Sequence record: MN850574.1
DNA length: 64,000 nt
Source of the DNA: Escherichia phage kaaroe
Strand: one strand, 5' to 3'
Every line of letters starts with the position of its first letter. Within the stretch, counting starts at the first letter, position 1. Position numbers and translations under genes: made by a program. A model generated the notes under the pieces. It searched no databases, had not been told where the DNA came from, and saw only the letters and a list, made by a program, of their open reading frames with translations. This document shows, piece after piece, positions 7,939-44,236 of this stretch.

Positions 7939-8265
7939 ATGGTTGATATGAAAGTTACTTGCGAAAGTGCACATGTTGAAGTTGAAAGTAGCCAATATTC
8001 ATTGCGTCCGTCCGGTCGCGTTACTGTGACTATGGATGATGTTGATTTGGTTAATAATGTTAGTGTTGAAGATATCGTTAATGAGTATGATCATAGCGAA
8101 CTACTAGACGCAATTCCTGAACATGTTGTGATCCAGCACGTAGTAAGCAATAATGATCCATCGACTTTCATTAAAGAATATGGCGCTGATGAAATGCTCG
8201 ATGAAATTGGCGAAAAGATTGTTATTGCATGGCTTGAAAACAACGGTTATACTGTAGAACAATAA
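7939..8265 (+). CDS. hypothetical acidic protein (108 aa)
   Basis: ORF track; GAGGAA SD. Confidence 0.5.
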   Translation: MVDMKVTCESAHVEVESSQYSLRPSGRVTVTMDDVDLVNNVSVEDIVNEYDHSELLDAIPEHVVIQHVVSNNDPSTFIKEYGADEMLDEIGEKIVIAWLENNGYTVEQ

Positions 8266-8272
8266 TCAACAT

Positions 8273-8296
8273 AGGCCGCTTTGCGCGGCCTTTCTT
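8273..8296 (+). terminator. intrinsic terminator
   Basis: GGCCGC / GCGGCC stem followed by TTTCTT. Confidence 0.5.
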
Positions 8297-8310
8297 AGAG
8301 GGAATACATT

Positions 8311-8604
8311 ATGACGGTCACGGTTATTACCAAATACGACGACGAAAATGTGATTTACGGTGACGTGGTTGTTGTTCACGGTCGTAGCATGAAAGTTACT
8401 GGTAATTGTAAAGATGGTGCTATTATTTGCGGTGAATTGGTGAGAACAGTCAATCCTATCACCGACGAACAAAAGCGAGTCATTATCAGAAAACTTAAAG
8501 ACAGTGGATATTGTAACGTCGTGGTGATTCAAGAAAAAATTGAAGTAGGTCACTTATACACAAATCAGAAAACAATTCCTGTATCAATGGTTAAAGGCGG
8601 TTAA
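8311..8604 (+). CDS. hypothetical protein (97 aa)
   Basis: ORF track; GAGGGAA SD. Confidence 0.5.
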   Translation: MTVTVITKYDDENVIYGDVVVVHGRSMKVTGNCKDGAIICGELVRTVNPITDEQKRVIIRKLKDSGYCNVVVIQEKIEVGHLYTNQKTIPVSMVKGG

Positions 8605-8606
8605 TA

Positions 8607-8969
8607 ATGCTAGGTCATTCTAAAATAGAAGATTGCTCATTCAGAGCAATGAAAGATGATTTTTCGGTCCTGTACGCGTCTATCCGAGAGTTGTTTGTAG
8701 ATTTTAAGCAATTCAGAGAATACAAAGGCGTTAAGATGCGGGAGTGGGTATTCTGGCCTTTCTATATCATTACTCTGTTTTCTATGGTATTTTGTTTTGT
8801 CGGGATCACTATCGCTAGTTTTGTCACTTGCGTTTTCCTGATTATCAGGTGTATCATGTTTGCTTTGATTGCTGCCCCGTTTATTGTGTCAATCCTTCCG
8901 TTAAAATGGCTATTGGATTGGGCTGATAAATCTGATAAAGTAAAGAATGTGATTTGTAAGCGTGTATGA
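8607..8969 (+). CDS. predicted integral membrane protein (120 aa)
   Basis: Long hydrophobic stretches (WVFWPFYIITLFSMVF..., FALIAAPFIVSILPL). Confidence 0.5.
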   Translation: MLGHSKIEDCSFRAMKDDFSVLYASIRELFVDFKQFREYKGVKMREWVFWPFYIITLFSMVFCFVGITIASFVTCVFLIIRCIMFALIAAPFIVSILPLKWLLDWADKSDKVKNVICKRV

Positions 8970-8976
8970 GGTGAAG

Positions 8977-10323
8977 ATGAATAAATCAGTTACTTACCGC
9001 AGCCTTGAAAGCATTGTACATAATGAAGCTAAGGAATATGCGATCTATTCTGCCGAGGAACGCGGGATTCCTCAATTAGTGGATGGGCTTAAACCAGTGC
9101 AACGCTTTGTTATGGAGTGCGCACTTCAAAAGAGTAAAGGTGACCGTAAGAAATTCCGTAAGATGGCAGATATTGGATCTGGTGTTGCTGAGTTGGGGTA
9201 TCACCACGGCGAAACTAATGCCGTAGAAGCCGGATCACTCATGGCGAATACATGGAGCAATAATACTCCACTGCTTGACGGTCAAGGTAACTTCGGATCG
9301 CGTTTAGTCCAGAAAGCAGGTGCGGCACGTTATATCTTTGCTCGCGTGCATGAAAACTTCTTTAAAATCTATAAAGATATGAATTGCGCACCTAAGCACG
9401 AAGATCTGGAACACATCCCGCCAGCGTTCTACTTGCCAGTTGTGCCAATGGTATTGGCTAACGGTATTAGTGGTATTGCTACAGGGTATAAAACTGACAT
9501 TTTACCGCATTCACTGGAAAGCCTTATTGAATGCACAGAGCTAGCACTTGCCGGAAAACTGGATAAAGAACCTAGTGTTCAATTCCCGAAATTCACGGGT
9601 AAAGTTATCCCGCGAGATGATCGCGATGGTGTGATTCTTGAGGGTACATATGAACTAAACGGCAAGACTAAACTGACAATATCAGAAGTTCCTTATAAGT
9701 TCGACCGTGAAGAATATGTAGCGGTACTGGATGCACTGGAAGAAAAAGATCTGATTGTATCGTATAATGACCGTTGCTCTAAGGACGGATTCAGATTTGA
9801 AGTAACACTGAAACGCGATTATTTCAAAAGCGAAGATGAATCCGCTCGACATGAGCAAATCATGAAGGATTTTAAACTAACGCAGTTAGTAGCCCAGAAT
9901 ATCGTAGTAGTTAACGAACGTGGTTTAGTAGAAGTATTCGAGAAAGCGAGCGATCTGATCCGTCGATTCGTCGAAATCCGATTAGGGTATGTCGATAAAC
10001 GCATTGAATTGATGCAAGCGGAAACGCTGGAAGCATACAATTATGCAATGGCTAAAGCCGAATTTATCGATCGCGTAATTAAGGGCGAAATCGAGCTACA
10101 GGGCAAGAAAAAGGCCGAGGTAATGCAATCCATCAATGGACATGAAAAACTGCGTCCATACGCCGATAAGCTAGTTTCTATGCCATTGTATAGCGTTACT
10201 CAAGAAGAGTATGATCGACTGGTCAAAGATGCCGATAAACATCATAGTGAATATGAGTATTGGACAAAGACGACCGCAATGAAGGAATATAAGAAAGATC
10301 TTAAAGAACTTAAGAAGGGTTGA
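8977..10323 (+). CDS. 52: DNA topoisomerase II medium subunit (GyrA-like)
   Basis: ATG after GAGGTG SD; GLKPVQRFV and active-site AARY motifs; T4 gp52-like. Confidence 0.9.
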   Translation: MNKSVTYRSLESIVHNEAKEYAIYSAEERGIPQLVDGLKPVQRFVMECALQKSKGDRKKFRKMADIGSGVAELGYHHGETNAVEAGSLMANTWSNNTPLLDGQGNFGSRLVQKAGAARYIFARVHENFFKIYKDMNCAPKHEDLEHIPPAFYLPVVPMVLANGISGIATGYKTDILPHSLESLIECTELALAGKLDKEPSVQFPKFTGKVIPRDDRDGVILEGTYELNGKTKLTISEVPYKFDREEYVAVLDALEEKDLIVSYNDRCSKDGFRFEVTLKRDYFKSEDESARHEQIMKDFKLTQLVAQNIVVVNERGLVEVFEKASDLIRRFVEIRLGYVDKRIELMQAETLEAYNYAMAKAEFIDRVIKGEIELQGKKKAEVMQSINGHEKLRPYADKLVSMPLYSVTQEEYDRLVKDADKHHSEYEYWTKTTAMKEYKKDLKELKKG

Positions 10324-10523
10324 TTATGAAAGAATATCCAGAAGGCGGTTATATTGCATTTGTGTACAACAATAAAAAGATTGTGCCAATGGTCGTTGAG
10401 ACTATGGAAGAAGCCAACCGGATCACTATTGAATCTCTGAGCAAATTAGCAGAGATGACAAACACACCAGAACACAGAGCAAAGATCGACAGCTTGATGA
10501 AAGAATTTTCAGAGAGGAAATAA
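10320..10523 (+). CDS. hypothetical protein (67 aa)
   Basis: ORF track; start overlaps gene 52 stop. Confidence 0.5.
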   Translation: MIMKEYPEGGYIAFVYNNKKIVPMVVETMEEANRITIESLSKLAEMTNTPEHRAKIDSLMKEFSERK

Positions 10524-10526
10524 ATT

Positions 10527-10922
10527 ATGACTGAACGACGCATTACTTCAAATGGTTTGGGTACTCATCATGCCTGGATGGTTGACCCAGACAAAAATCC
10601 TTATAAACTTTACGATACAACGATTAAACCGTGGAATAATGGCGTATGGAAAACACCACCCACAACAGCACCTATTATGACTGATCAGAAACCGTTTAGC
10701 CCGATGGCGGAACCAGTACAGATTAAGCCGTTACCTTACCAGATAACGACGAATAGCATCACCAACAAACAAGAAAATGATATTGATATGATCTACGAGA
10801 TGATTAAACTTTGGCGTGATGTTTATCTGGGTGTTCTCTGCAACACAGATAAAAGTGCACATGCGGCAGCGGTACTGGCATCTCATGCAGTAGACGAAGC
10901 CAAAAAGAAATTTAGTAAGTAA
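10527..10922 (+). CDS. hypothetical protein (131 aa)
   Basis: ORF track; AGAGGAAA SD. Confidence 0.5.
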   Translation: MTERRITSNGLGTHHAWMVDPDKNPYKLYDTTIKPWNNGVWKTPPTTAPIMTDQKPFSPMAEPVQIKPLPYQITTNSITNKQENDIDMIYEMIKLWRDVYLGVLCNTDKSAHAAAVLASHAVDEAKKKFSK

Positions 10923-10931
10923 CTGATTATT

Positions 10932-10958
10932 AAGCCGATCCTTGTGGTCGGCTTTTTT
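10932..10958 (+). terminator. intrinsic terminator
   Basis: AGCCGA / TCGGCT stem followed by TTTTTT. Confidence 0.6.
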
Positions 10959-10971
10959 ATTTTAAAAGTTG

Positions 10972-11000
10972 TTGACTTCCATAATCCATCATTGCATAAT
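10972..11000 (+). promoter_or_regulatory. sigma70-type early promoter
   Basis: TTGACT, 17-nt spacer, CATAAT, then conserved ACCAAACAAAAGGAGAATCAAAG leader. Confidence 0.5.
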
Positions 11001-11031
11001 ACACACATACCAAACAAAAGGAGAATCAAAG

Positions 11032-11304
11032 ATGAACAACGAAAACAGCAAAGTGTTGGCAATTGCAGATAAAGTAGGTTACTGGAAATGCTGGGATGAT
11101 ATGGAGAAATTAGGCGGTCGCTATCTCGATAACTTAGAGTTGCATTATTGCCAAGCGCGTAATGCAGAAGTTGCGGGAGTAGCAATCGAAGATATTCCGT
11201 CTAAAGTCTTCGGATTCTCTAAAGATGATACTCTAGAATATGTTTTCAAGGCTGTTATGGATCAAGCATGGGAAGACGCAGAGACACGCGCTCTTGACTG
11301 GTGA
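11032..11304 (+). CDS. hypothetical protein (90 aa)
   Basis: ATG after GGAGAATCA SD; track ORF 10969-11304 begins inside the promoter. Confidence 0.5.
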   Translation: MNNENSKVLAIADKVGYWKCWDDMEKLGGRYLDNLELHYCQARNAEVAGVAIEDIPSKVFGFSKDDTLEYVFKAVMDQAWEDAETRALDW

Positions 11305-11308
11305 TAAT

Positions 11309-11479
11309 ATGAACTGGTATAAAATTTGGAAAAATCAGGTGGAGGCTTATCTAGGGTATAAGCCAACCGACGAAGAATTACTTGAAGCAATGTACGAAGA
11401 CGGCTTAAATCCGAAAGTAGCCGCGCAAGAATACGCGGAATGGGTGAAGGTCGAAGATAACCTAAAGGGGAAACTATGA
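11309..11479 (+). CDS. hypothetical protein (56 aa)
   Basis: Internal ATG of track ORF 11240-11479, overlapping previous stop. Confidence 0.4.
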   Translation: MNWYKIWKNQVEAYLGYKPTDEELLEAMYEDGLNPKVAAQEYAEWVKVEDNLKGKL

Positions 11480-11676
11480 AGAAAATGATTGCGATTGCTT
11501 TGCTGGCTAGTGCATGTACGGTAAATGCTAATACCGCAGCGATGGTCGCGGCTGTAACTGCTGCAAATGCGTCTGTTATGGCATCGCAAGAGGCAGCACG
11601 CCAGCAAGCACAACAAGAAGCCCAGCGAAAAGCACATGAGGCGACGAAAAATTTCACGAAAATAACAAAAAACTAG
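11476..11676 (+). CDS. small secreted or lipo-protein (66 aa)
   Basis: N-terminal signal peptide MKKMIAIALLASAC...; Q/A-rich C-terminus. Confidence 0.5.
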   Translation: MKKMIAIALLASACTVNANTAAMVAAVTAANASVMASQEAARQQAQQEAQRKAHEATKNFTKITKN

Positions 11677-11710
11677 TTGACGCCAAAGGTCATCGGTAGT
11701 ATTATACTCC
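11677..11710 (+). promoter_or_regulatory. PeSL-like early promoter cassette
   Basis: TTGACG, 17-nt spacer, TATTAT, degenerate GTAGTA/TACTCC repeat, CCCATACCGAAACGAA leader. Confidence 0.5.
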
Positions 11711-11739
11711 CATACCGAAACGAACTGGAGGAAATAAAA

Positions 11740-11982
11740 ATGGTTAAAGTTAATGTTATCGAAGTTGCACTGTACGACGCTGGGATCTTCCTGAATGAAA
11801 AAGAAGCTGCCGTCCTCGACGAACTGAAAACTGTTTTTGTTCCTGTAGTAGAAGACGTAGAAGCAATCAAAATCGCTTCTCGTAAACTGTCCCGCGAAGC
11901 ATTCGACATGATTGATCCGGTTTTCAAAGTTATGCACGAATGCGCGGTTATGATGACCGAAGAAGAAGCGAAAAATTTCTAA
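11740..11982 (+). CDS. hypothetical acidic protein (80 aa)
   Basis: ATG after GGAGGAAA SD; track ORF starts at TTG inside the promoter. Confidence 0.5.
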   Translation: MVKVNVIEVALYDAGIFLNEKEAAVLDELKTVFVPVVEDVEAIKIASRKLSREAFDMIDPVFKVMHECAVMMTEEEAKNF

Positions 11983-11989
11983 AAACTAG

Positions 11990-12024
11990 TTGACGTAAAG
12001 ATAAGGGAGTAGTAACATACTCCC
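11990..12024 (+). promoter_or_regulatory. PeSL-like early promoter cassette
   Basis: TTGACG; inverted repeat GGGAGTA...TACTCCC across the -10; conserved leader. Confidence 0.55.
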
Positions 12025-12047
12025 ATACCAAACGAAAGGAGAATCAC

Positions 12048-12257
12048 ATGAAATCTATCGAGCAAGTAGTAACAGAGTTTATGAGCTACGAAGGAAACCG
12101 CATCTTTGGACGTTCTCAAGTTCGCGAGATCGTAGAAGAAGTTGCTGGAGAGTTTGCGGAATCTGGTCACATTATCACGCAAGAACGTAAAGAAGAAGCA
12201 GTAAACCAGATCATGGCTATACAGAAAATGCGTATTAATGCACGAGCGGGGGCTTAA
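12048..12257 (+). CDS. hypothetical protein (69 aa)
   Basis: ORF track; GGAGAATCA SD. Confidence 0.5.
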   Translation: MKSIEQVVTEFMSYEGNRIFGRSQVREIVEEVAGEFAESGHIITQERKEEAVNQIMAIQKMRINARAGA

Positions 12258-12258
12258 A

Positions 12259-12558
12259 ATGAATTTTACCGATAAAGTTTTTGAAATTAGTCGCACTACT
12301 TCAATTAAAAATCTTAGGGCGGCTGCATTTATGGTTGATAAAGGGTTTAATATGGCATCGTCTGACGGTGTACCGTACTTTGCACCAACTTTCGTTGGCT
12401 GGATGACTGATCGTAAACGTGATTACACTAAAGCATATCCGCATATGGTACTTAGTAAAATTATCACTAAAGTGTATCCACATATGGTACTTAATGACGT
12501 TATCACGGACCACGATCACTTTACAAACTTTATTGTTTCCGGTGAATGGCGAAAATAA
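12259..12558 (+). CDS. hypothetical protein (99 aa) with internal repeat
   Basis: Internal ATG of track ORF; contains YPHMVL direct repeat. Confidence 0.45.
   Translation: MNFTDKVFEISRTTSIKNLRAAAFMVDKGFNMASSDGVPYFAPTFVGWMTDRKRDYTKAYPHMVLSKIITKVYPHMVLNDVITDHDHFTNFIVSGEWRK
12436..12507 (+). repeat. intragenic imperfect direct repeat (two ~33-nt units)
   Basis: TATCCGCATATGGTACTTAGTAAAATTATCACT and TATCCACATATGGTACTTAATGACGTTATCACG. Confidence 0.6.
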
Positions 12559-12569
12559 TTTAAAACTAG

Positions 12570-12604
12570 TTGACACCGGATTAAGGGAGTAGTAACATAC
12601 TCCC
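12570..12604 (+). promoter_or_regulatory. PeSL-like early promoter cassette
   Basis: TTGACA; inverted repeat GGGAGTA...TACTCCC; conserved leader. Confidence 0.55.
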
Positions 12605-12632
12605 ATCAAGACAAAACACTGAGGAATATATT

Positions 12633-13391
12633 ATGAAAAACATTATCGCTGCTATCGTTCTTTCTGCTACTGCTTTCGGTGCTAACGCTGCGTCCTTTGA
12701 TTGCGCTAAAGCTACTACCAAATCAGAGAAGTTTATTTGTGCTAATGAGTCTATCTCCGCACTGGACTCTAAACTTCATGAGGTGTATGTTAAGGCTGTT
12801 AAGATTGATCCGTCTCTGAAACAAGAGCAACGAAACTGGAATAAAACTGTTCGTGATACAATGATCAATATAGGGCAGATTCAGCCACTGGAGGCTGTAT
12901 ATAACGCTCAAATCCAAAACTTGATGAATGTATTACCTAAAGAAGAAACCGCGTCAGAAAGCGATTCAGAGACTTCTGCGAAGGTTGAAGAAGAACAACC
13001 GAAACAGGAAGCAAAAGTGGTAGAAGAACCGAAGGTCGAAACTTTTACCTATCAATGTACCGTTCGTTATGAGTGGAGTATGAAAGATGGAATTTCCACA
13101 AAAATTAAAGAGGCTCCACTGTATGCAAAATATGGAAACCAGCCAGGGGATCTTAAAGTAACCATTAAAAATGGGAAGATGGTTGATTTTGTATACACTG
13201 ATGAATACAACGTACACAAAGCAAACGTACAAGAAACCGTTATGACTAAAGGCGGGTTTTATAAGAATGTTGGCAAGAAAGATCTATATGAATACTCCGT
13301 TTTCGAACCAAACGACGGAACTATTCGATTTGAAAAACGTCATCCTACATTCGGTGGAGCAATTGATGTAGATCAATACGTTTGCAAGTAA
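12633..13391 (+). CDS. secreted protein with DUF1311/LprI-like N-terminal domain
   Basis: Signal peptide MKNIIAAIVLSATAFGANA; FDCAKATTKSEKFICANESISALDSKLHEVY pattern. Confidence 0.5.
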   Translation: MKNIIAAIVLSATAFGANAASFDCAKATTKSEKFICANESISALDSKLHEVYVKAVKIDPSLKQEQRNWNKTVRDTMINIGQIQPLEAVYNAQIQNLMNVLPKEETASESDSETSAKVEEEQPKQEAKVVEEPKVETFTYQCTVRYEWSMKDGISTKIKEAPLYAKYGNQPGDLKVTIKNGKMVDFVYTDEYNVHKANVQETVMTKGGFYKNVGKKDLYEYSVFEPNDGTIRFEKRHPTFGGAIDVDQYVCK

Positions 13392-13402
13392 GAGGTTAAA
13401 TT

Positions 13403-13690
13403 ATGCAATTCAATAACATGAAGATTACAAAAGATTGGTGGAAGGCGATGCAAGATACTCCAGAAACCAAATTAAGCGAGACAACAACCACAATACAAGT
13501 TGATTACGAAGATCCGAAAGACATATACAGAGAGATTTTAATCAGAGAGCTTATAAAAGCTGGAAACTATCAAACACCAGATGGCCTTATTGACATGATG
13601 GTTAAAGGTCTGTATAGTGGTAAAAATCCAGATATTTTACCGTGGTACGAGGGATATTTTAAAACATATCGTGACCACAACCGAAAATAA
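13403..13690 (+). CDS. hypothetical protein (95 aa)
   Basis: ORF track; GAGG SD. Confidence 0.5.
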   Translation: MQFNNMKITKDWWKAMQDTPETKLSETTTTIQVDYEDPKDIYREILIRELIKAGNYQTPDGLIDMMVKGLYSGKNPDILPWYEGYFKTYRDHNRK

Positions 13691-13713
13691 GTTGTTGACG
13701 TGAGGATTATATT

Positions 13714-13905
13714 ATGGTAATTTTTAATCGCGATGGTATCATAGTTCGGCAGCATCCATTCCTTGAATACTATCAGGTTGAACAATGGGGATATGGAGAT
13801 TGCAACCGCTCATACGGTCAAAGCTGGGGATACCGTACAGTTTTTGAATCAACTAATATTGACAAAGTACGACAGAAAGTTTTAGAACTTCTTAACGATA
13901 AGTGA
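13714..13905 (+). CDS. hypothetical protein (63 aa)
   Basis: ORF track; GTGAGGATTATATTATG initiation motif. Confidence 0.5.
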   Translation: MVIFNRDGIIVRQHPFLEYYQVEQWGYGDCNRSYGQSWGYRTVFESTNIDKVRQKVLELLNDK

Positions 13906-13915
13906 GGATTACATC

Positions 13916-14284
13916 ATGGAAATTCAAAACAATTACGAAAAATGTGTTATTATCAATGATTTGCAACGTCAATTGCACAACTACGAAACCGATTATAAAA
14001 CAGCAACCAAAACTGGAAAGCTGAAAGTGTGGGAAGTCTGGTATAACCGGAACTATCTGGGAAGCATCCACAAACTTGATCGCAGTGATGTTTATACAAT
14101 GCATGTAGGCGCTTGTGGTGAATCGGATGTAGCATTTAATTTCATGGAAGCACTTGCATTCTATGTAGAATATCTGGTAGACTATATCGAGTTGGAAGAG
14201 GAAGTTGTAGAATTGCTTCCTCCACCGGAAGAAGCGCCGGAAGCAACGATCCTGAAAGCATTAAAGAAAATCTTTGTTAAGTGA
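13916..14284 (+). CDS. hypothetical acidic protein (122 aa)
   Basis: ORF track; GTGAGGATTACATCATG initiation motif. Confidence 0.5.
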   Translation: MEIQNNYEKCVIINDLQRQLHNYETDYKTATKTGKLKVWEVWYNRNYLGSIHKLDRSDVYTMHVGACGESDVAFNFMEALAFYVEYLVDYIELEEEVVELLPPPEEAPEATILKALKKIFVK

Positions 14285-14292
14285 GGTGAACT

Positions 14293-14625
14293 ATGAAAAA
14301 TGTACTGATTGTGTGGGAACTGATTCCAGAAACTACTGAATTATACATGGTACAGGTTGACAATAAAGAATTTGAAATTCTGAAACGCGTCAACTGCAAA
14401 TATATTAACATTGATGACATGACCCCAGAAATGGACTATGTAAACTATGCTCTCATGCAGCCTAGTTGGATTATGGATGAAACTAAAGCAGACGCCGAAT
14501 CGCTGGGTGTACCGGAAGAAGTATTAGCGAAATGGCATCAATTCAAAGTTGAAATAAAAGAGGGCGAACCGTTTATTCCTAGCGGTAAGATCGATGCGGT
14601 GATCGTAACAGGTTTTCATCTGTAA
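14293..14625 (+). CDS. hypothetical protein (110 aa)
   Basis: ORF track; GTGAGGTG SD. Confidence 0.5.
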   Translation: MKNVLIVWELIPETTELYMVQVDNKEFEILKRVNCKYINIDDMTPEMDYVNYALMQPSWIMDETKADAESLGVPEEVLAKWHQFKVEIKEGEPFIPSGKIDAVIVTGFHL

Positions 14626-14637
14626 GGAGATTATACA

Positions 14638-14970
14638 ATGTTTAACTATGACAAATATGAATCATGGAAAGCGACCGAATTGAAAGAGGCAGCGCGGTTA
14701 ATCACACCGCGTCTTTATCCGGTGTTGTTTAGCGCAGATAAAGTAACAAGGGAAGTAAACGAGGCGCTATCGGTTTTAGGCTATCTGATCGATAAAGTAG
14801 AGAAAACATCGGTATTCACAAATAGCGTAGAATATACCCGGTATCGAGTGTTTTTAGATTCCTTGCTCGTTGTCATTAAGGCACTAAATGATCATAACTA
14901 CACCATGAACATGACGAAAATAATCGACGAAGCAAGAATTATGACAGAGAATATTTTCGGTAAATTTTGA
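14638..14970 (+). CDS. hypothetical protein (110 aa), paralog of 15085-15408
   Basis: ORF track; C-terminal ...MTENIFGKF resembles ...AENVYGKF. Confidence 0.5.
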   Translation: MFNYDKYESWKATELKEAARLITPRLYPVLFSADKVTREVNEALSVLGYLIDKVEKTSVFTNSVEYTRYRVFLDSLLVVIKALNDHNYTMNMTKIIDEARIMTENIFGKF

Positions 14971-15084
14971 TTATGAAAGATGATGAATCATTGAAAATTG
15001 CACTGGTTATGCTATTACAAGGTATAGAATTAGCAAACCACGAAAAAATGTTGAAACAACAGCGTGAAATTATGAGAGGTGATT

Positions 15085-15408
15085 ATGATCGAGTTTGAAA
15101 TTGACAACTTTCACGAAAAAGCAGAAGACCTAACCAAAATTTTGATTAGTCGAGGTGCATATAATACGAAAGATATTATAAAAGAAGTTAATGTAGCGAT
15201 GGACGCGATCCGAAAGGAATTTAAACATATTTCAGCGATTGGAGAAAATGGTCATCTTGAAGATGTTGAGCTGGTAGCACTGCGACGCTATTACTTCTTT
15301 GTTGATTGCATCATTGATCTAGCTAAAAATTATAGTCATTACATGAAAGATATTGTAAAAGATGCACGTAAGCTGGCAGAGAATGTTTACGGGAAGTTTC
15401 CAGAATGA
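15085..15408 (+). CDS. hypothetical protein (108 aa), paralog of 14638-14970
   Basis: ATG after GAGAGG SD (track starts at GTG 15079). Confidence 0.5.
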   Translation: MIEFEIDNFHEKAEDLTKILISRGAYNTKDIIKEVNVAMDAIRKEFKHISAIGENGHLEDVELVALRRYYFFVDCIIDLAKNYSHYMKDIVKDARKLAENVYGKFPE

Positions 15409-15653
15409 AATTAGAACAAGCGATTGTATACTTTGAGATGGGCTATGATATTGCTCGTGTAGAGTGGGAAGATGGTGATTTTGTCCGATTGATTGATCTT
15501 CCAGAAACAGCTATTGCACTGGTCAAAGTAGAAAACGGCGTACAACGAAATTACGCGTTTTCTGACGAAGACAAACAAGCCGATGACTGGTACGCTACCT
15601 GTTTTCATCATACAGCGTCAAAATGCGATTCAGGCGCGTCTATGCGCCAATAA
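15405..15653 (+). CDS. hypothetical protein (82 aa)
   Basis: ORF track; start overlaps previous stop. Confidence 0.5.
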   Translation: MKLEQAIVYFEMGYDIARVEWEDGDFVRLIDLPETAIALVKVENGVQRNYAFSDEDKQADDWYATCFHHTASKCDSGASMRQ

Positions 15654-15656
15654 AAA

Positions 15657-15684
15657 GAAGGGGAGGCCGAAAGGCTTCCCCTTT
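15657..15684. terminator. bidirectional terminator between convergent gene blocks
   Basis: AAGGGGAGGCC-GAAA-GGCTTCCCCTT hairpin with A/T runs on both sides. Confidence 0.6.
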
Positions 15685-15687
15685 AAG

Positions 15688-16344
15688 TTATCTAATCCTT
15701 CCGAGGATTCTGGCAGATTGATTGCAAAGAGTATCTAAATTCTCAATGTCAATATCCGGTTTATTCTTCCATGAAATGGCGATACTACCAGAATAGACAT
15801 TATCGAGATTGAATATAGGACAAGAATACATGAAACCTATATCGATATTCTCTAATTTCTTTTCTCTTGATGGAATATACTGGAAATCTTTATCGGTAAA
15901 ATATGATTTACCTAAAAGATGCCTACGATATTCTTCACTCGTTTTATTGATAGGGAATCCGCCTAAATTTTTTTCATCGATTGTGTGAGGTAGCTTTCCT
16001 TCATATGCCACCAAATCAACAAAATAGTTTAGGTTTTTCGGACGAAAACTAAAAACAGCAGAAAAATCGGCATCAGCCGACACATGAACTATCTGTAACT
16101 GCTCCTGTGCTGCATTATCAAAATTGCGGTCTTTCTCTACCTGGAGAATGTGAGCATAAGTCTCATAACGAGTCTCTTTATAAAGCGCAAATAACTCGTT
16201 TTTACTATAAACGACAAATGCTAATATGGACAACACGACGGCAGCAAAAACACGAAGTACGAGCAACTCCGTGCTTTTAGTTGTGAAAATAGCGCGCAGG
16301 ACATTTGAGATAGCAAAGTCTTTCCCTTTTTCAGAAACTTGCAT
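15688..16344 (-). CDS. t: holin (T4 t-type, single N-terminal TMD with large periplasmic domain)
   Basis: 218 aa; strong similarity to T4 holin T (LQIVHVSADADFSAVFSFRPKNLNYFVDLVAYEGKLP, ...CNQSARILGRIR). Confidence 0.9.
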   Translation of the reverse strand: MQVSEKGKDFAISNVLRAIFTTKSTELLVLRVFAAVVLSILAFVVYSKNELFALYKETRYETYAHILQVEKDRNFDNAAQEQLQIVHVSADADFSAVFSFRPKNLNYFVDLVAYEGKLPHTIDEKNLGGFPINKTSEEYRRHLLGKSYFTDKDFQYIPSREKKLENIDIGFMYSCPIFNLDNVYSGSIAISWKNKPDIDIENLDTLCNQSARILGRIR

Positions 16345-16377
16345 ATAATGCCCTAAGATAACTATGACAGTGTACTC

Positions 16378-16617
16378 TTATTTAGGTAGTTGACTATCAC
16401 TAGGTTTATCTTGCTCGTTACTATCTTCTGACTGATCTTTATTAAACTCCTTATAAAGTTCTTCCACAAAACGATCATCAATTGGCGTATTGGTATAAGC
16501 CGCAAGACGACGAGCGCAATAGAAGAAAATTTTAGTGAGCATCTTTTCACTAATTAACTTTGACAATAATTTCATTCCGAAATTAGACAAAGCACCAATG
16601 ACGATATTATAGACCAT
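16378..16617 (-). CDS. hypothetical small protein (79 aa) at the position gp38 occupies in T4
   Basis: ORF track; AAGGAG SD 8 nt upstream; hydrophobic N-terminus, acidic tail. Confidence 0.45.
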   Translation of the reverse strand: MVYNIVIGALSNFGMKLLSKLISEKMLTKIFFYCARRLAAYTNTPIDDRFVEELYKEFNKDQSEDSNEQDKPSDSQLPK

Positions 16618-16657
16618 AGCCGTTTCTCCTTAGTAGTTCCCTTCCCTGGGAGTTTCC

Positions 16658-19420
16658 TTAATTCTTTTTAAGTTCCGCTAGTTCAGCTTTAACGGCATTC
16701 AATTCTTCGCTCATTTCCTGAAACGCCTTAATTAAAAGAGCGTTGACAGCAGAGTTAGAAATTGTTAAGATCTCTTCTGGCTTATCGGGATCGCCGATGT
16801 TAGAAGTTGTTACTGCTTCCGGTAATTCTTTTTCAAGATCCTGAGCAATAATACCAACTTCATGAGCAATGACAGTACGGTCGGTTAAAGATTTAACCTT
16901 GTCATAGGTGTATACCGTCAAGCGATTAACTTTATCAGTGGCATTCTCCTTATACTCTTCCTTGTTGATTTTAAGGCGAGCATCAGAGCGAATGTAAACG
17001 TCGTTAAAGTTACCATTGCGTCCAGCTTGGAAATCGCCGTTTTTATAGAAGGTAGTATTAGATTCAACACCAGAACCTTTAACATGAACTCGCCATGAAC
17101 CTTCATTAAGAAGCATACCCAACGAGAATGTTACTGCACCTTGAACATAACGTTGCTTGATCAAAGGAACATATGTAGACGCATCACCACGGTCTAAACG
17201 TTGGAAAATAGGTGCTTTGACGTTATCATCATGTTGAGATGCAAAAGAACCAGCACCCGCAGAACCAGAATCTATAGTAATGACGCTAGCGCCGCGTTGA
17301 ATAGCATTACCAAAATTCAGACTACCGCCTACGTTAGCATCGCTTCCGCTATAGAAAGAACCTGCAACAGAGAACTTAACCGGACCAGTTCCACCCGCAG
17401 TACGTTCGGTATACCAATGATAACTTGTTGCATCCGTACATTCAAAAACTTGTTTTCGTGATTCATTACCCCATGTATGGAGACTAAATTGCGAAGAAGA
17501 ACCACGGTTAGCATGGAATGTAATTTCGCCAGATTCTACACGCACAAATCCTTTAAATCGCGCAGTAATTTCACCGGTTGCCATTTTACGTTCAGTTGTG
17601 AAGTGTGCACCGCTATTGTCTTCAAACTGCAAAATGTTATCACGGGCGTTATTGCTATCACCCCAATGGTTGATTTTAAAGAAATCACGAGATCCTAATC
17701 GTCCACTAGAGAAATGAAGGAAACCTTTTTCTACATAAACATCACCCGTAAAACGAGCGGCTTTGCTTGCACGTTCTAACGTTAATGCAGCTTCGTTACC
17801 GTCACCGCCTAATTGAACGTTACCGGAAGTCAAATCGTAAATGAATGGTCGGTTGCCGTTCCACCCACCAAAACGATCATTTTCGGCAGTAGAAAGAAGA
17901 TAAACTTTAGTGCCGTCATTACGCCAGAATGCACCATAATTACCAAAGATCATACGGTATGCATCAGAATTGGCAGCTACATATTGACCATTAGTGTATA
18001 CAATTTTGGTTGCACCTGCGCTTAAAGATACTTGACCACTTGCTTCTAGCTTAACAAAGTTTTTACCTTCGTCACTATACCATTGAAAATCGTTGGTTTC
18101 TGTAGAACCAAAACCAAACCAGCCTTGACGTTTATTAGCCCCGTCTCGCTGATCCATATATTCAAAATAGTTACTACAACCAGTAGGACGCCACATACGA
18201 ATCGCGTTATTGCCTTGCAGATGAAGTCTATTGACAAATAAACCATCACTACCAACAATTTTTAATACTTCTTTTTGGTCGGTGGAACCAGTAGCCAAAC
18301 GATACACATCACCTTGAACAGTTTCATGCCATATTGTTTCCGCCGCACGACTGCGGAATTTACGCATATATTTTTTATTGTTGTCTGGTACGTTATTAAG
18401 GCTCACAATATCATAGGTTGCTTGTGAGTTATTATCAAACATCAACGTTCCGGCTTTGTTTTCTGTGTTGAACATCGTAATAACACGAGCATCAAATTTA
18501 GTTCCGGTTGCTGGTGCAGTCGCCGAAAATTCAGGAACATCATAAACAGTCAATGCGACGTCAACAGTTTTTCCAAACTCTACAATAACGTTATCGGTGT
18601 AACGACCATAGTTAACATAAATGTCATAGTTATCACCGGAAGTATTAATTGCAAATACTTCATGGACGTTCAAAGAATTTCGACGATATGCAGCAATAGT
18701 AACACCTTTAGGATTTCCATTCCCACCACGAATCACGATTTCAAGGAAATCCACCTGGTCGTAGGATTTAACATTAAATCCGTTTCCACCATAGATACGA
18801 ATAAATGCCATTTTTCCTTGCTGGGGGATCATTGCGGTTGCAATCTTAAAGTAGCCACGAGTTGCGTCACCGGAAGGAACAGACATTTTAACGTTCTTAA
18901 CAAACATACGGTCAATTTCTTGTTTGCTATAAACGTTCAATTCTCCTGGAGTTGGTTTATCACCTTCGTGATACATTTTATAACTAAATGCTTTTTGACC
19001 TTCTCTATTATAGCCATAAGTTTCTACACGCGATCCAGTGTGCCCATACTGGAAAGTAAATCCTCGACCATGTTGGACACCGGAAGAGTGAGGAACGTTT
19101 AGCGTGAGTTCGAGAAGACCATCAAGACCATTGGTACGGAAAGCGCCAAAGTAGTTAAGATCTCTCGCTGTCTGATCTTCCAGATAGTTAGCGGTTTTAC
19201 TTAAGATATAATTATTACCTTTAACCTTACCCGCCATTGTAACATCGCGGTCATAAACCGGAGGACAACTTAAATTGATAATAGTACCGGAATCATTTTT
19301 AGTAAGAAGATATTGATCCGCAAGGTTGATTGCCAATTCCCCCGGATTCATCGTACTAGCATCAGGTTTACGACCTTTAGTGCTAGTGCGTTTAAATTGG
19401 ATTCTGCTTAAATCTGCCAT
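16658..19420 (-). CDS. 37: long tail fibre distal subunit
   Basis: 920 aa; N-terminus MADLSRIQFKRTSTKGRKPDASTMNPGELAINL resembles T4 gp37. Confidence 0.88.
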   Translation of the reverse strand: MADLSRIQFKRTSTKGRKPDASTMNPGELAINLADQYLLTKNDSGTIINLSCPPVYDRDVTMAGKVKGNNYILSKTANYLEDQTARDLNYFGAFRTNGLDGLLELTLNVPHSSGVQHGRGFTFQYGHTGSRVETYGYNREGQKAFSYKMYHEGDKPTPGELNVYSKQEIDRMFVKNVKMSVPSGDATRGYFKIATAMIPQQGKMAFIRIYGGNGFNVKSYDQVDFLEIVIRGGNGNPKGVTIAAYRRNSLNVHEVFAINTSGDNYDIYVNYGRYTDNVIVEFGKTVDVALTVYDVPEFSATAPATGTKFDARVITMFNTENKAGTLMFDNNSQATYDIVSLNNVPDNNKKYMRKFRSRAAETIWHETVQGDVYRLATGSTDQKEVLKIVGSDGLFVNRLHLQGNNAIRMWRPTGCSNYFEYMDQRDGANKRQGWFGFGSTETNDFQWYSDEGKNFVKLEASGQVSLSAGATKIVYTNGQYVAANSDAYRMIFGNYGAFWRNDGTKVYLLSTAENDRFGGWNGNRPFIYDLTSGNVQLGGDGNEAALTLERASKAARFTGDVYVEKGFLHFSSGRLGSRDFFKINHWGDSNNARDNILQFEDNSGAHFTTERKMATGEITARFKGFVRVESGEITFHANRGSSSQFSLHTWGNESRKQVFECTDATSYHWYTERTAGGTGPVKFSVAGSFYSGSDANVGGSLNFGNAIQRGASVITIDSGSAGAGSFASQHDDNVKAPIFQRLDRGDASTYVPLIKQRYVQGAVTFSLGMLLNEGSWRVHVKGSGVESNTTFYKNGDFQAGRNGNFNDVYIRSDARLKINKEEYKENATDKVNRLTVYTYDKVKSLTDRTVIAHEVGIIAQDLEKELPEAVTTSNIGDPDKPEEILTISNSAVNALLIKAFQEMSEELNAVKAELAELKKN
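16661..16987 (-). other. C-terminal intramolecular chaperone domain of gp37 (predicted autoproteolytic)
   Basis: SDARLK motif then ~105 aa ending in coiled-coil AVKAELAELKK, as in T5 pb1 / endosialidase chaperone domains. Confidence 0.6.
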
Positions 19421-43929: not shown

Positions 43930-44236
43930 ACAAGTTGATAATATCGCACTTCGTGAAGCACTAAAGAAAATGTTTTCGGTCGGTACTCACTCTTTGCAGT
44001 TTACTAAGAAAGATGGTACTGTCCGTGAGATGATCGCCACGCGAGATCCGGCACTGATGCCTTTCGAAACATACGAAAAGTGGTTAGTTCCTAATGTTGA
44101 AAAACCGCGTAAAGAATCAGAAACATCTTTGCCAGTATATGAAATTGCAGTTGAAGGTTTCCGTAGTTTTGGGCTTGATAGTCTGATTAATGTAGACGGG
44201 CTGACTCCAGCGCAGATCGTCGAAATTTATAAATAA
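43922..44236 (+). CDS. hypothetical protein (104 aa)
   Basis: Internal ATG of track ORF; overlaps cd stop. Confidence 0.5.
   Translation: MTEQVDNIALREALKKMFSVGTHSLQFTKKDGTVREMIATRDPALMPFETYEKWLVPNVEKPRKESETSLPVYEIAVEGFRSFGLDSLINVDGLTPAQIVEIYK

Follow-up and report, generated by a model that had tools for sequence, protein, structure and literature searches.

The interval between gene 52 and the holin gene t of Escherichia phage kaaroe (sequence record MN850574.1) contains no recognisable homologue of motA or asiA, the genes that encode the middle-mode transcription factors at this locus in T4. The interval occupies positions 10320-15653 of the 64,000-nucleotide (nt) stretch that was analysed, which is referred to below as the window. 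Based on profile searches, motif counts and comparison with the complete genome of the related phage RB49, we consider it highly probable (roughly 90%) that this Krischvirus phage has neither gene and therefore, both being missing, has no MotA/AsiA sigma appropriation and no MotA-box middle promoters. It should be noted that this absence is already known, having been published for RB49 in 2002-2006, and that the finding is thus correct but ordinary. Its value is that modern profile methods and exhaustive database search confirm a textbook exception among T4-type coliphages, and that RB49-like phages provide a natural comparison for what middle-mode transcription contributes.

Absence of motA and asiA homologues

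Nucleotide comparisons place the window in Krischvirus, a group of RB49-like Straboviridae related to T4. Across the interval, 58 records match at 93-98.5% identity, all of them of RB49 type and led by phages FL37, FL15 and Delraymugoa, and a probe of window positions 40000-64000 pointed to the same genus (55 of 65 matching records at 95-99% identity). The window is colinear with the reverse complement of RB49 (RB49 6724-1 followed by 164018-105673) at 95-98.6% identity, with few replacements. Pfam matches and identity to T4 proteins identify the two flanking genes:

8962..10323, + strand: gene 52, topoisomerase II medium subunit gp52 (Pfam DNA_topoisoIV, 6.3e-69; 50.6% identity to T4 gp52 over 435 amino acids (aa), E 9e-147), with an alternative ATG start at 8977
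15688..16344, - strand: holin gene t (Pfam Phage_holin_T, 4.5e-61; 48.5% identity to T4 t)

These flanks bear out the interval boundaries drawn in an earlier reading made from the letters alone (hereafter the sequence-only reading), and the T4 record (AF158101) agrees with its statement that motA and asiA lie between 52 and t in that phage. The interval holds 17 gene-like open reading frames (ORFs), which range from 41 to 252 aa, lie without exception on the + strand and are mostly preceded by a recognisable Shine-Dalgarno sequence. The 16 small ORFs counted previously are an accurate description, as the near-identical Delraymugoa is annotated with 16 coding sequences in the interval, a 1-nt indel fusing the equivalents of 11476-11676 and 11740-11982. 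RB49 is annotated with 14 ORFs between 52 and t because it is without window segment 11467-12556.

None of the 17 ORFs matched the Pfam families for AsiA (PF09010) or MotA (PF09114 and PF09158) at E<=1. In PHROGs (E<=0.1), 15 of the 17 fell into families of unknown function and two had no match; none matched phrog_1166 (AsiA) or phrog_1345 (MotA), the families that correctly recovered T4 AsiA (anti-sigma factor, 1.3e-41) and T4 MotA (2.3e-98) as positive controls. A tblastn search of the window with T4 AsiA returned nothing at E<=10. With T4 MotA, the best match (E=2.3, 22% identity over 106 aa, at 15345-15662) coincides with a Tad2-like ORF and is at chance level; it was rejected, as it was not reproduced by Pfam MotCF, by a hidden Markov model (HMM) built from 83 full-length MotA homologues or by hhalign (0.3%). 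When every interval ORF was aligned by hhalign to the alignments of AsiA and of the N-terminal and C-terminal domains of MotA, all probabilities were below 5%, and those against AsiA were below 2%. AsiA is a compact, all-helical protein of about 90 aa that binds region 4 of sigma70 and blocks recognition of the -35 element; its mark was taken to be a family-profile match that includes the conserved N-terminal core (...ASILIKF..DIL....F..FLNE.G...). For MotA, the interval contains no two-domain cytoplasmic protein of about 210 aa, its ORFs being 41-131 aa long apart from one 252-aa protein with a signal peptide. Hence the statement that no ORF in the interval resembles either factor, and the profile search of this locus that had been named as a possible refutation, both end in the same negative result, with the T4 controls positive.

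The search was extended to all six-frame ORFs of at least 30 aa from both the window and the complete genome of RB49, the latter standing in for the remaining genome of this phage; together with an 8-kb control locus from T4, the set came to 3,687 ORFs. A first AsiA HMM was based on 7 sequences and its successor on 36 family representatives. An earlier word-index search with T4 AsiA had given only 10 close relatives, and the representatives were therefore taken from an exhaustive HMMER run over 1.84 billion cluster representatives, where no more than 36 proteins passed the E<=0.001 threshold. Both T4 controls were recovered (MotA 1.7e-94, AsiA 5.2e-37). The AsiA HMMs gave best E-values of 0.24-0.59 among the window and RB49 ORFs (0.59 for the 36-member model), and a tblastn search of window and RB49 with the 36 representatives found nothing below E=0.036. 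The best non-control match to the MotA HMM was RB49 frd.2 (E=0.013, 12.5 bits, 68 residues). This candidate was rejected: the match spans only the MotA linker, T4 has frd.2 besides motA, and Pfam gives only a sub-threshold RecT match. Likewise, the expert annotation of RB49 (298 features) includes no motA and no asiA; it does name srd, modB, alt, rpbA, 55, 33 and dsbA. Thus the proposed check for homologues elsewhere in the genome yielded none in the window or in RB49.

In T4 the order is 52, motA.1, motA, arn.4, arn.3, arn.2, arn.1, arn, asiA.1, asiA, followed by the convergent t. The window resembles T4 in its flanks (gp52 at 51% and t at 49% identity), in an early-strand block of small genes convergent with t, and in a gene of the arn.4 family. 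It differs in that T4 has MotA, AsiA and MotA-box promoters, whereas the window has neither these genes nor the motif. T4 Arn, arn.1-3, asiA.1 and motA.1 also have no counterpart in the window, leaving arn.4 as the only gene of the motA-asiA block to be retained. RB49 (AY343333, RB49ORF253c-266c) shares the flanks, gene order and orientation, with 97-98% DNA identity over the shared parts; it too is missing motA and asiA and has an arn.4-like gene (ORF257c). It differs in carrying ORF261c and ORF262c in place of the ~1.1 kb at 11467-12556, which encodes four ORFs in the window. Phages KVP40, nt-1, Aeh1 and 65 are similar in having no recognisable MotA and no middle-promoter consensus, but they keep an AsiA orthologue that inhibits the sigma70 holoenzyme (PMC1524935, PMC2988021), whereas in the window AsiA is undetectable with the 36-representative profile. 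In the passage of Nolan et al. 2006 (PMC1524935) that cites Desplats et al. 2002, RB49 is described as having yielded neither a motA orthologue nor a consensus for middle promoters when these were sought, and its early and late promoter motifs as conserved. Hinton's 2010 review (PMC2988021) places RB49 neither in its list of phages with motA and asiA nor in its list of phages with asiA only. Since the window is itself RB49-like and the two papers agree, the appeal of the sequence-only reading to reports on RB49-like phages was well founded.

Promoter motifs and the proposed transcription programme

The MotA box, TGCTTtA near position -30 in combination with a sigma70 -10 element, was counted in the window, in RB49 and in T4 as a control. 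In the first 50 kb of T4, on the early strand, the pattern TGCTTNA-N11-13-TANNNT occurs 10 times vs 1.9 expected and the relaxed pattern GCTT-N13-15-TANAAT 15 times vs 2.1 expected, a 5-7-fold enrichment. In contrast, both the window and RB49 are at chance level. The + strand of the window has one match vs 1.4 expected (TGCTTNA pattern) and one vs 1.6 (GCTT pattern), and the TGCTTNA pattern occurs five times on both strands vs 3.2 +/- 2.0 expected. For RB49, the early strand of positions 1-50 kb has one match vs 0.8 expected and none vs 1.4 expected, respectively, and the whole genome has five MotA-box matches on both strands together, again the chance level. The cis element is missing as well as the factor, which is the outcome of the middle-promoter search that the sequence-only reading had suggested.

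Promoters of the sigma70 type show the opposite pattern across the window. At a threshold of at least 10 of 12 consensus positions, 68 sites lie on the + strand and 12 on the - strand, with 14.7 +/- 3.8 expected. The orthologues of rIIA, rIIB, 39, 32, 59, dsbA, rnh, nrdA and pseT have near-consensus -35/-10 sites 37-120 nt upstream; the sites of rIIA (at 81 nt) and gene 32 (at 37 nt) are perfect (12/12). Window-wide, TTGACA-N16/17-TATAAT is matched at all 12 positions by nine sites, which belong to the strand asymmetry just described and all lie on the + strand (3525, 4509, 6467, 26770, 29129, 30224, 31515, 48803 and 54636). Within the interval, the + strand has four sites at the same threshold, three of them in intergenic gaps, and a fifth site (9/12) lies in the gap at 11990. 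These sites and an adjacent hairpin are as follows:

10932..10954, + strand: hairpin resembling a terminator, with a T run after its 9-bp stem
10972..11000, + strand: sigma70-like site TTGACT-17-CATAAT (10/12), in an intergenic gap
11677..11705, + strand: sigma70-like site TTGACG-17-TATTAT (10/12)
12570..12598, + strand: sigma70-like site TTGACA-17-TAACAT (10/12), in an intergenic gap
13590..13618, + strand: sigma70-like site TTGACA-17-TATAGT (11/12), upstream of 13714

The strong hairpin at 10932-10954 is followed within 20 nt by the promoter-like site at 10972, and the pair is predicted to divide the interval into two or more transcription units.

The missing homologues, the missing MotA box and the promoter enrichment are direct observations. 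They are consistent with a likely mechanism in which the host sigma70 is used unmodified and is followed directly by the late system. Where T4 has its motA.1-to-asiA block, the window has instead 16-17 small genes that form a lineage-specific and partly variable cluster, oriented in the early direction and served by sigma70-type promoters. Under the proposed model, the prereplicative genes, including the 52-to-t cluster, would be transcribed by unmodified host sigma70 holoenzyme from strong -35/-10 promoters. Transcription would then pass to the gp55/gp33/gp45 system for the late genes, without an intervening MotA/AsiA tier.

Gene content of the interval

The 17 ORFs of the interval, all on the + strand, are:

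10326..10523, +: 65-aa ORF, equivalent of RB49ORF266c (phrog_15105, 1.3e-47), with no AsiA or MotA signal
10527..10922, +: 131-aa ORF, equivalent of RB49ORF265c (phrog_15644, 5.9e-92)
11032..11304, +: 90-aa acidic ORF (isoelectric point 4.4), predicted helical (phrog_7287; hhalign vs AsiA 0.3%)
11309..11479, +: 56-aa ORF (phrog_8655)
11476..11676, +: 66-aa basic ORF with a signal-peptide-like N-terminus, inside the segment that RB49 lacks
11740..11982, +: 80-aa ORF
12048..12257, +: 69-aa ORF (phrog_14966)
12238..12558, +: 106-aa ORF whose internal repeat includes YPHMVL (phrog_19692)
12633..13391, +: 252-aa predicted secreted protein with a Sec-type signal peptide (Pfam LprI, 1.4e-5, 25.9 bits, cutoff 22; phrog_14799)
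13403..13690, +: 95-aa ORF (phrog_15915)
13714..13905, +: 63-aa ORF (phrog_6957)
13916..14284, +: arn.4 homologue (phrog_1594, 5.9e-25)
14293..14625, +: 110-aa ORF (phrog_4658)
14638..14970, +: 110-aa paralog of 15085-15408 (phrog_9457, 2.7e-43)
14973..15098, +: 41-aa ORF (phrog_17009)
15085..15408, +: 107-aa protein, predicted four-helix bundle, without a specific AsiA likeness (phrog_9457)
15405..15653, +: 82-aa Tad2-like/DUF2829 ORF (Pfam PF11195, 2.4e-6, 28.4 bits, cutoff 25; phrog_1048)

The last gene before t, in the position of asiA in T4, is the Tad2-like ORF. Its PF11195 match spans profile positions 1-71 of 73 and lies above the gathering score, and a phmmer search against PDB sequences of solved structures returned no match. 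Other members of the DUF2829 family bind and sequester the signal of the Thoeris system, 1''-3' gcADPR, and so inhibit Thoeris (bioRxiv 10.1101/2023.05.01.538930), and the product of this ORF is a candidate for a signal sponge of this kind in a T4-type coliphage. The only interval ORF longer than 131 aa (12633..13391) carries a partial N-terminal LprI/DUF1311 domain of the lysozyme-inhibitor family; it likewise had no match in a phmmer search of PDB sequences. The RB49 annotation includes no sp or imm genes, and it is conceivable that this protein has a Spackle-like role against the tail lysozyme of a superinfecting phage.

The ORF at 13916-14284 belongs to the same family as T4 arn.4, which matches phrog_1594 at 1.1e-26. 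This homology explains the note attached to RB49ORF257c, which refers to the T4 "12.8 kD protein in the AsiA-MotA region". The remaining interval ORFs are restricted to Krischvirus, and 13 of the 17 are without any functional clue. The products of 14638-14970 and 15085-15408 are tandem paralogs (32% identity) that have a common C-terminal motif, ARxxxENxxGKF, and only four homologue clusters among 5.8 billion proteins. These paralogs were considered as an AsiA candidate and set aside: the AlphaFold2 model is confident, but the four-helix bundle that it depicts is a generic fold, for which the structure comparison gave no specific neighbour.

Segment 11467-12556 (~1.1 kb, four small ORFs) is missing from RB49 and present in FL37, FL15 and Delraymugoa. 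Its signal-peptide-like ORF is alanine/glutamine-rich, and another of its ORFs contains the YPHMVL repeat.

Alternative explanations and variation among relatives

Several observations weigh against the absence of a middle tier as set out above. The abundance of sigma70 promoters claimed by the sequence-only reading holds window-wide, but within the interval the excess at the stricter threshold is modest (4 vs 1.3 expected, with 21 of 500 shuffles reaching 4), and a loose scan of 8000-17000 gave 23 sites vs 24.1 expected, no excess at all. The window shows no excess of the exact T4 late-promoter consensus, TATAAATA (3 vs 5.7 expected), whose single + strand copy, at 44228-44235, precedes the gene 31 orthologue by 50 nt; the annotated late sites of RB49 read TnTAAATA (TGTAAATA or TCTAAATA), so that the exact count is a weak test of late-promoter placement. 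The form of the RB49 sites suggests a relaxed late consensus. In addition, about 100 kb of this phage lies outside the window and is represented by RB49 as a proxy, and the two-tier timing is one that we infer or take from the literature. Finally, sequence and profile methods would be blind to a non-homologous functional analogue, and the structural test covered one candidate family, the single-sequence AlphaFold2 model of the other candidate (11032-11304) having been unusable (predicted local distance difference test score, pLDDT, 51).

This last point bears on whether the interval encodes a cryptic AsiA- or MotA-like function that is too diverged or sequence-unrelated to be recognised, in which case some remodelling of sigma70 would persist. 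Candidates would be the acidic ORF 11032-11304 and the four-helix-bundle paralogs at 14638-14970 and 15085-15408. There is precedent for such divergence, as KVP40 AsiA is only 27% identical to T4 AsiA and yet functional, and a MotA analogue has been proposed for phages that have asiA without a recognisable motA (PMC2988021). Several interval ORFs are, like AsiA, small, acidic and helical, and their families are tiny and uncharacterised. However, the 36-member AsiA profile, which was built from very diverse relatives, was silent, as was hhalign (<5%); a two-domain MotA would need a larger cytoplasmic ORF than any in the interval, where the one protein above 131 aa is secreted; and the MotA box is missing. 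We therefore regard a cryptic function as very improbable. Equally far-fetched at present is the more specific idea that a Krischvirus-restricted early protein (the phrog_9457 paralogs or the product of ORF 11032-11304) is a non-homologous modulator of RNA polymerase or sigma70 replacing the inhibitory role of AsiA, although, if true, it would constitute a second, independent route to the shut-off of early transcription in T4-type phages. Relocation of motA and/or asiA into the ~100 kb beyond the window is in keeping with the mosaic nature of T4-like genomes, and the window does differ from RB49 by insertions and replacements. Against it, neither gene is annotated in the complete RB49 genome or was recovered there by the six-frame HMMs; the 87 MotA clusters with a named source include none that is called after an RB49-like phage; Krischvirus DNA gave no match to any of the 36 AsiA representatives; and the five MotA boxes counted on both strands of the whole RB49 genome are the chance level. 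This makes relocation the least credible of these possibilities.

A different emphasis, compatible with the absence of MotA and AsiA, is that the interval is mainly an accessory island for anti-defence or host takeover, like the arn region of T4, rather than a locus of transcription control. The equivalent T4 block has Arn, an anti-McrBC protein, and the interval retains an arn.4 homologue, has a Tad2-like/DUF2829 ORF above the Pfam cutoff and a secreted LprI-type protein, and varies in gene content among close relatives. On the other hand, only one ORF has a family-level link to anti-defence, with no sequence match to solved structures, and most of the ORFs (13 of 17) offer no functional clue, so that we place this proposal a little short of an even chance. 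Whichever emphasis is adopted, a by-product of the analysis is a variable early accessory block of uncharacterised families that could be mined for anti-defence or host-takeover functions.

Variation relative to RB49 is also seen beyond t. The gene for a gp37-like distal tail fibre (16658-19420, - strand, 920 aa) is well conserved with RB49 except for ~1.2 kb within 17026-18287, which is either 79% identical or unalignable. This divergence probably reflects a swap of the receptor-recognition region. The adjoining 79-aa ORF (16378-16617) corresponds to RB49 dc5/ORF251w (phrog_402), and gene 38 of RB49 is annotated at a distant locus.

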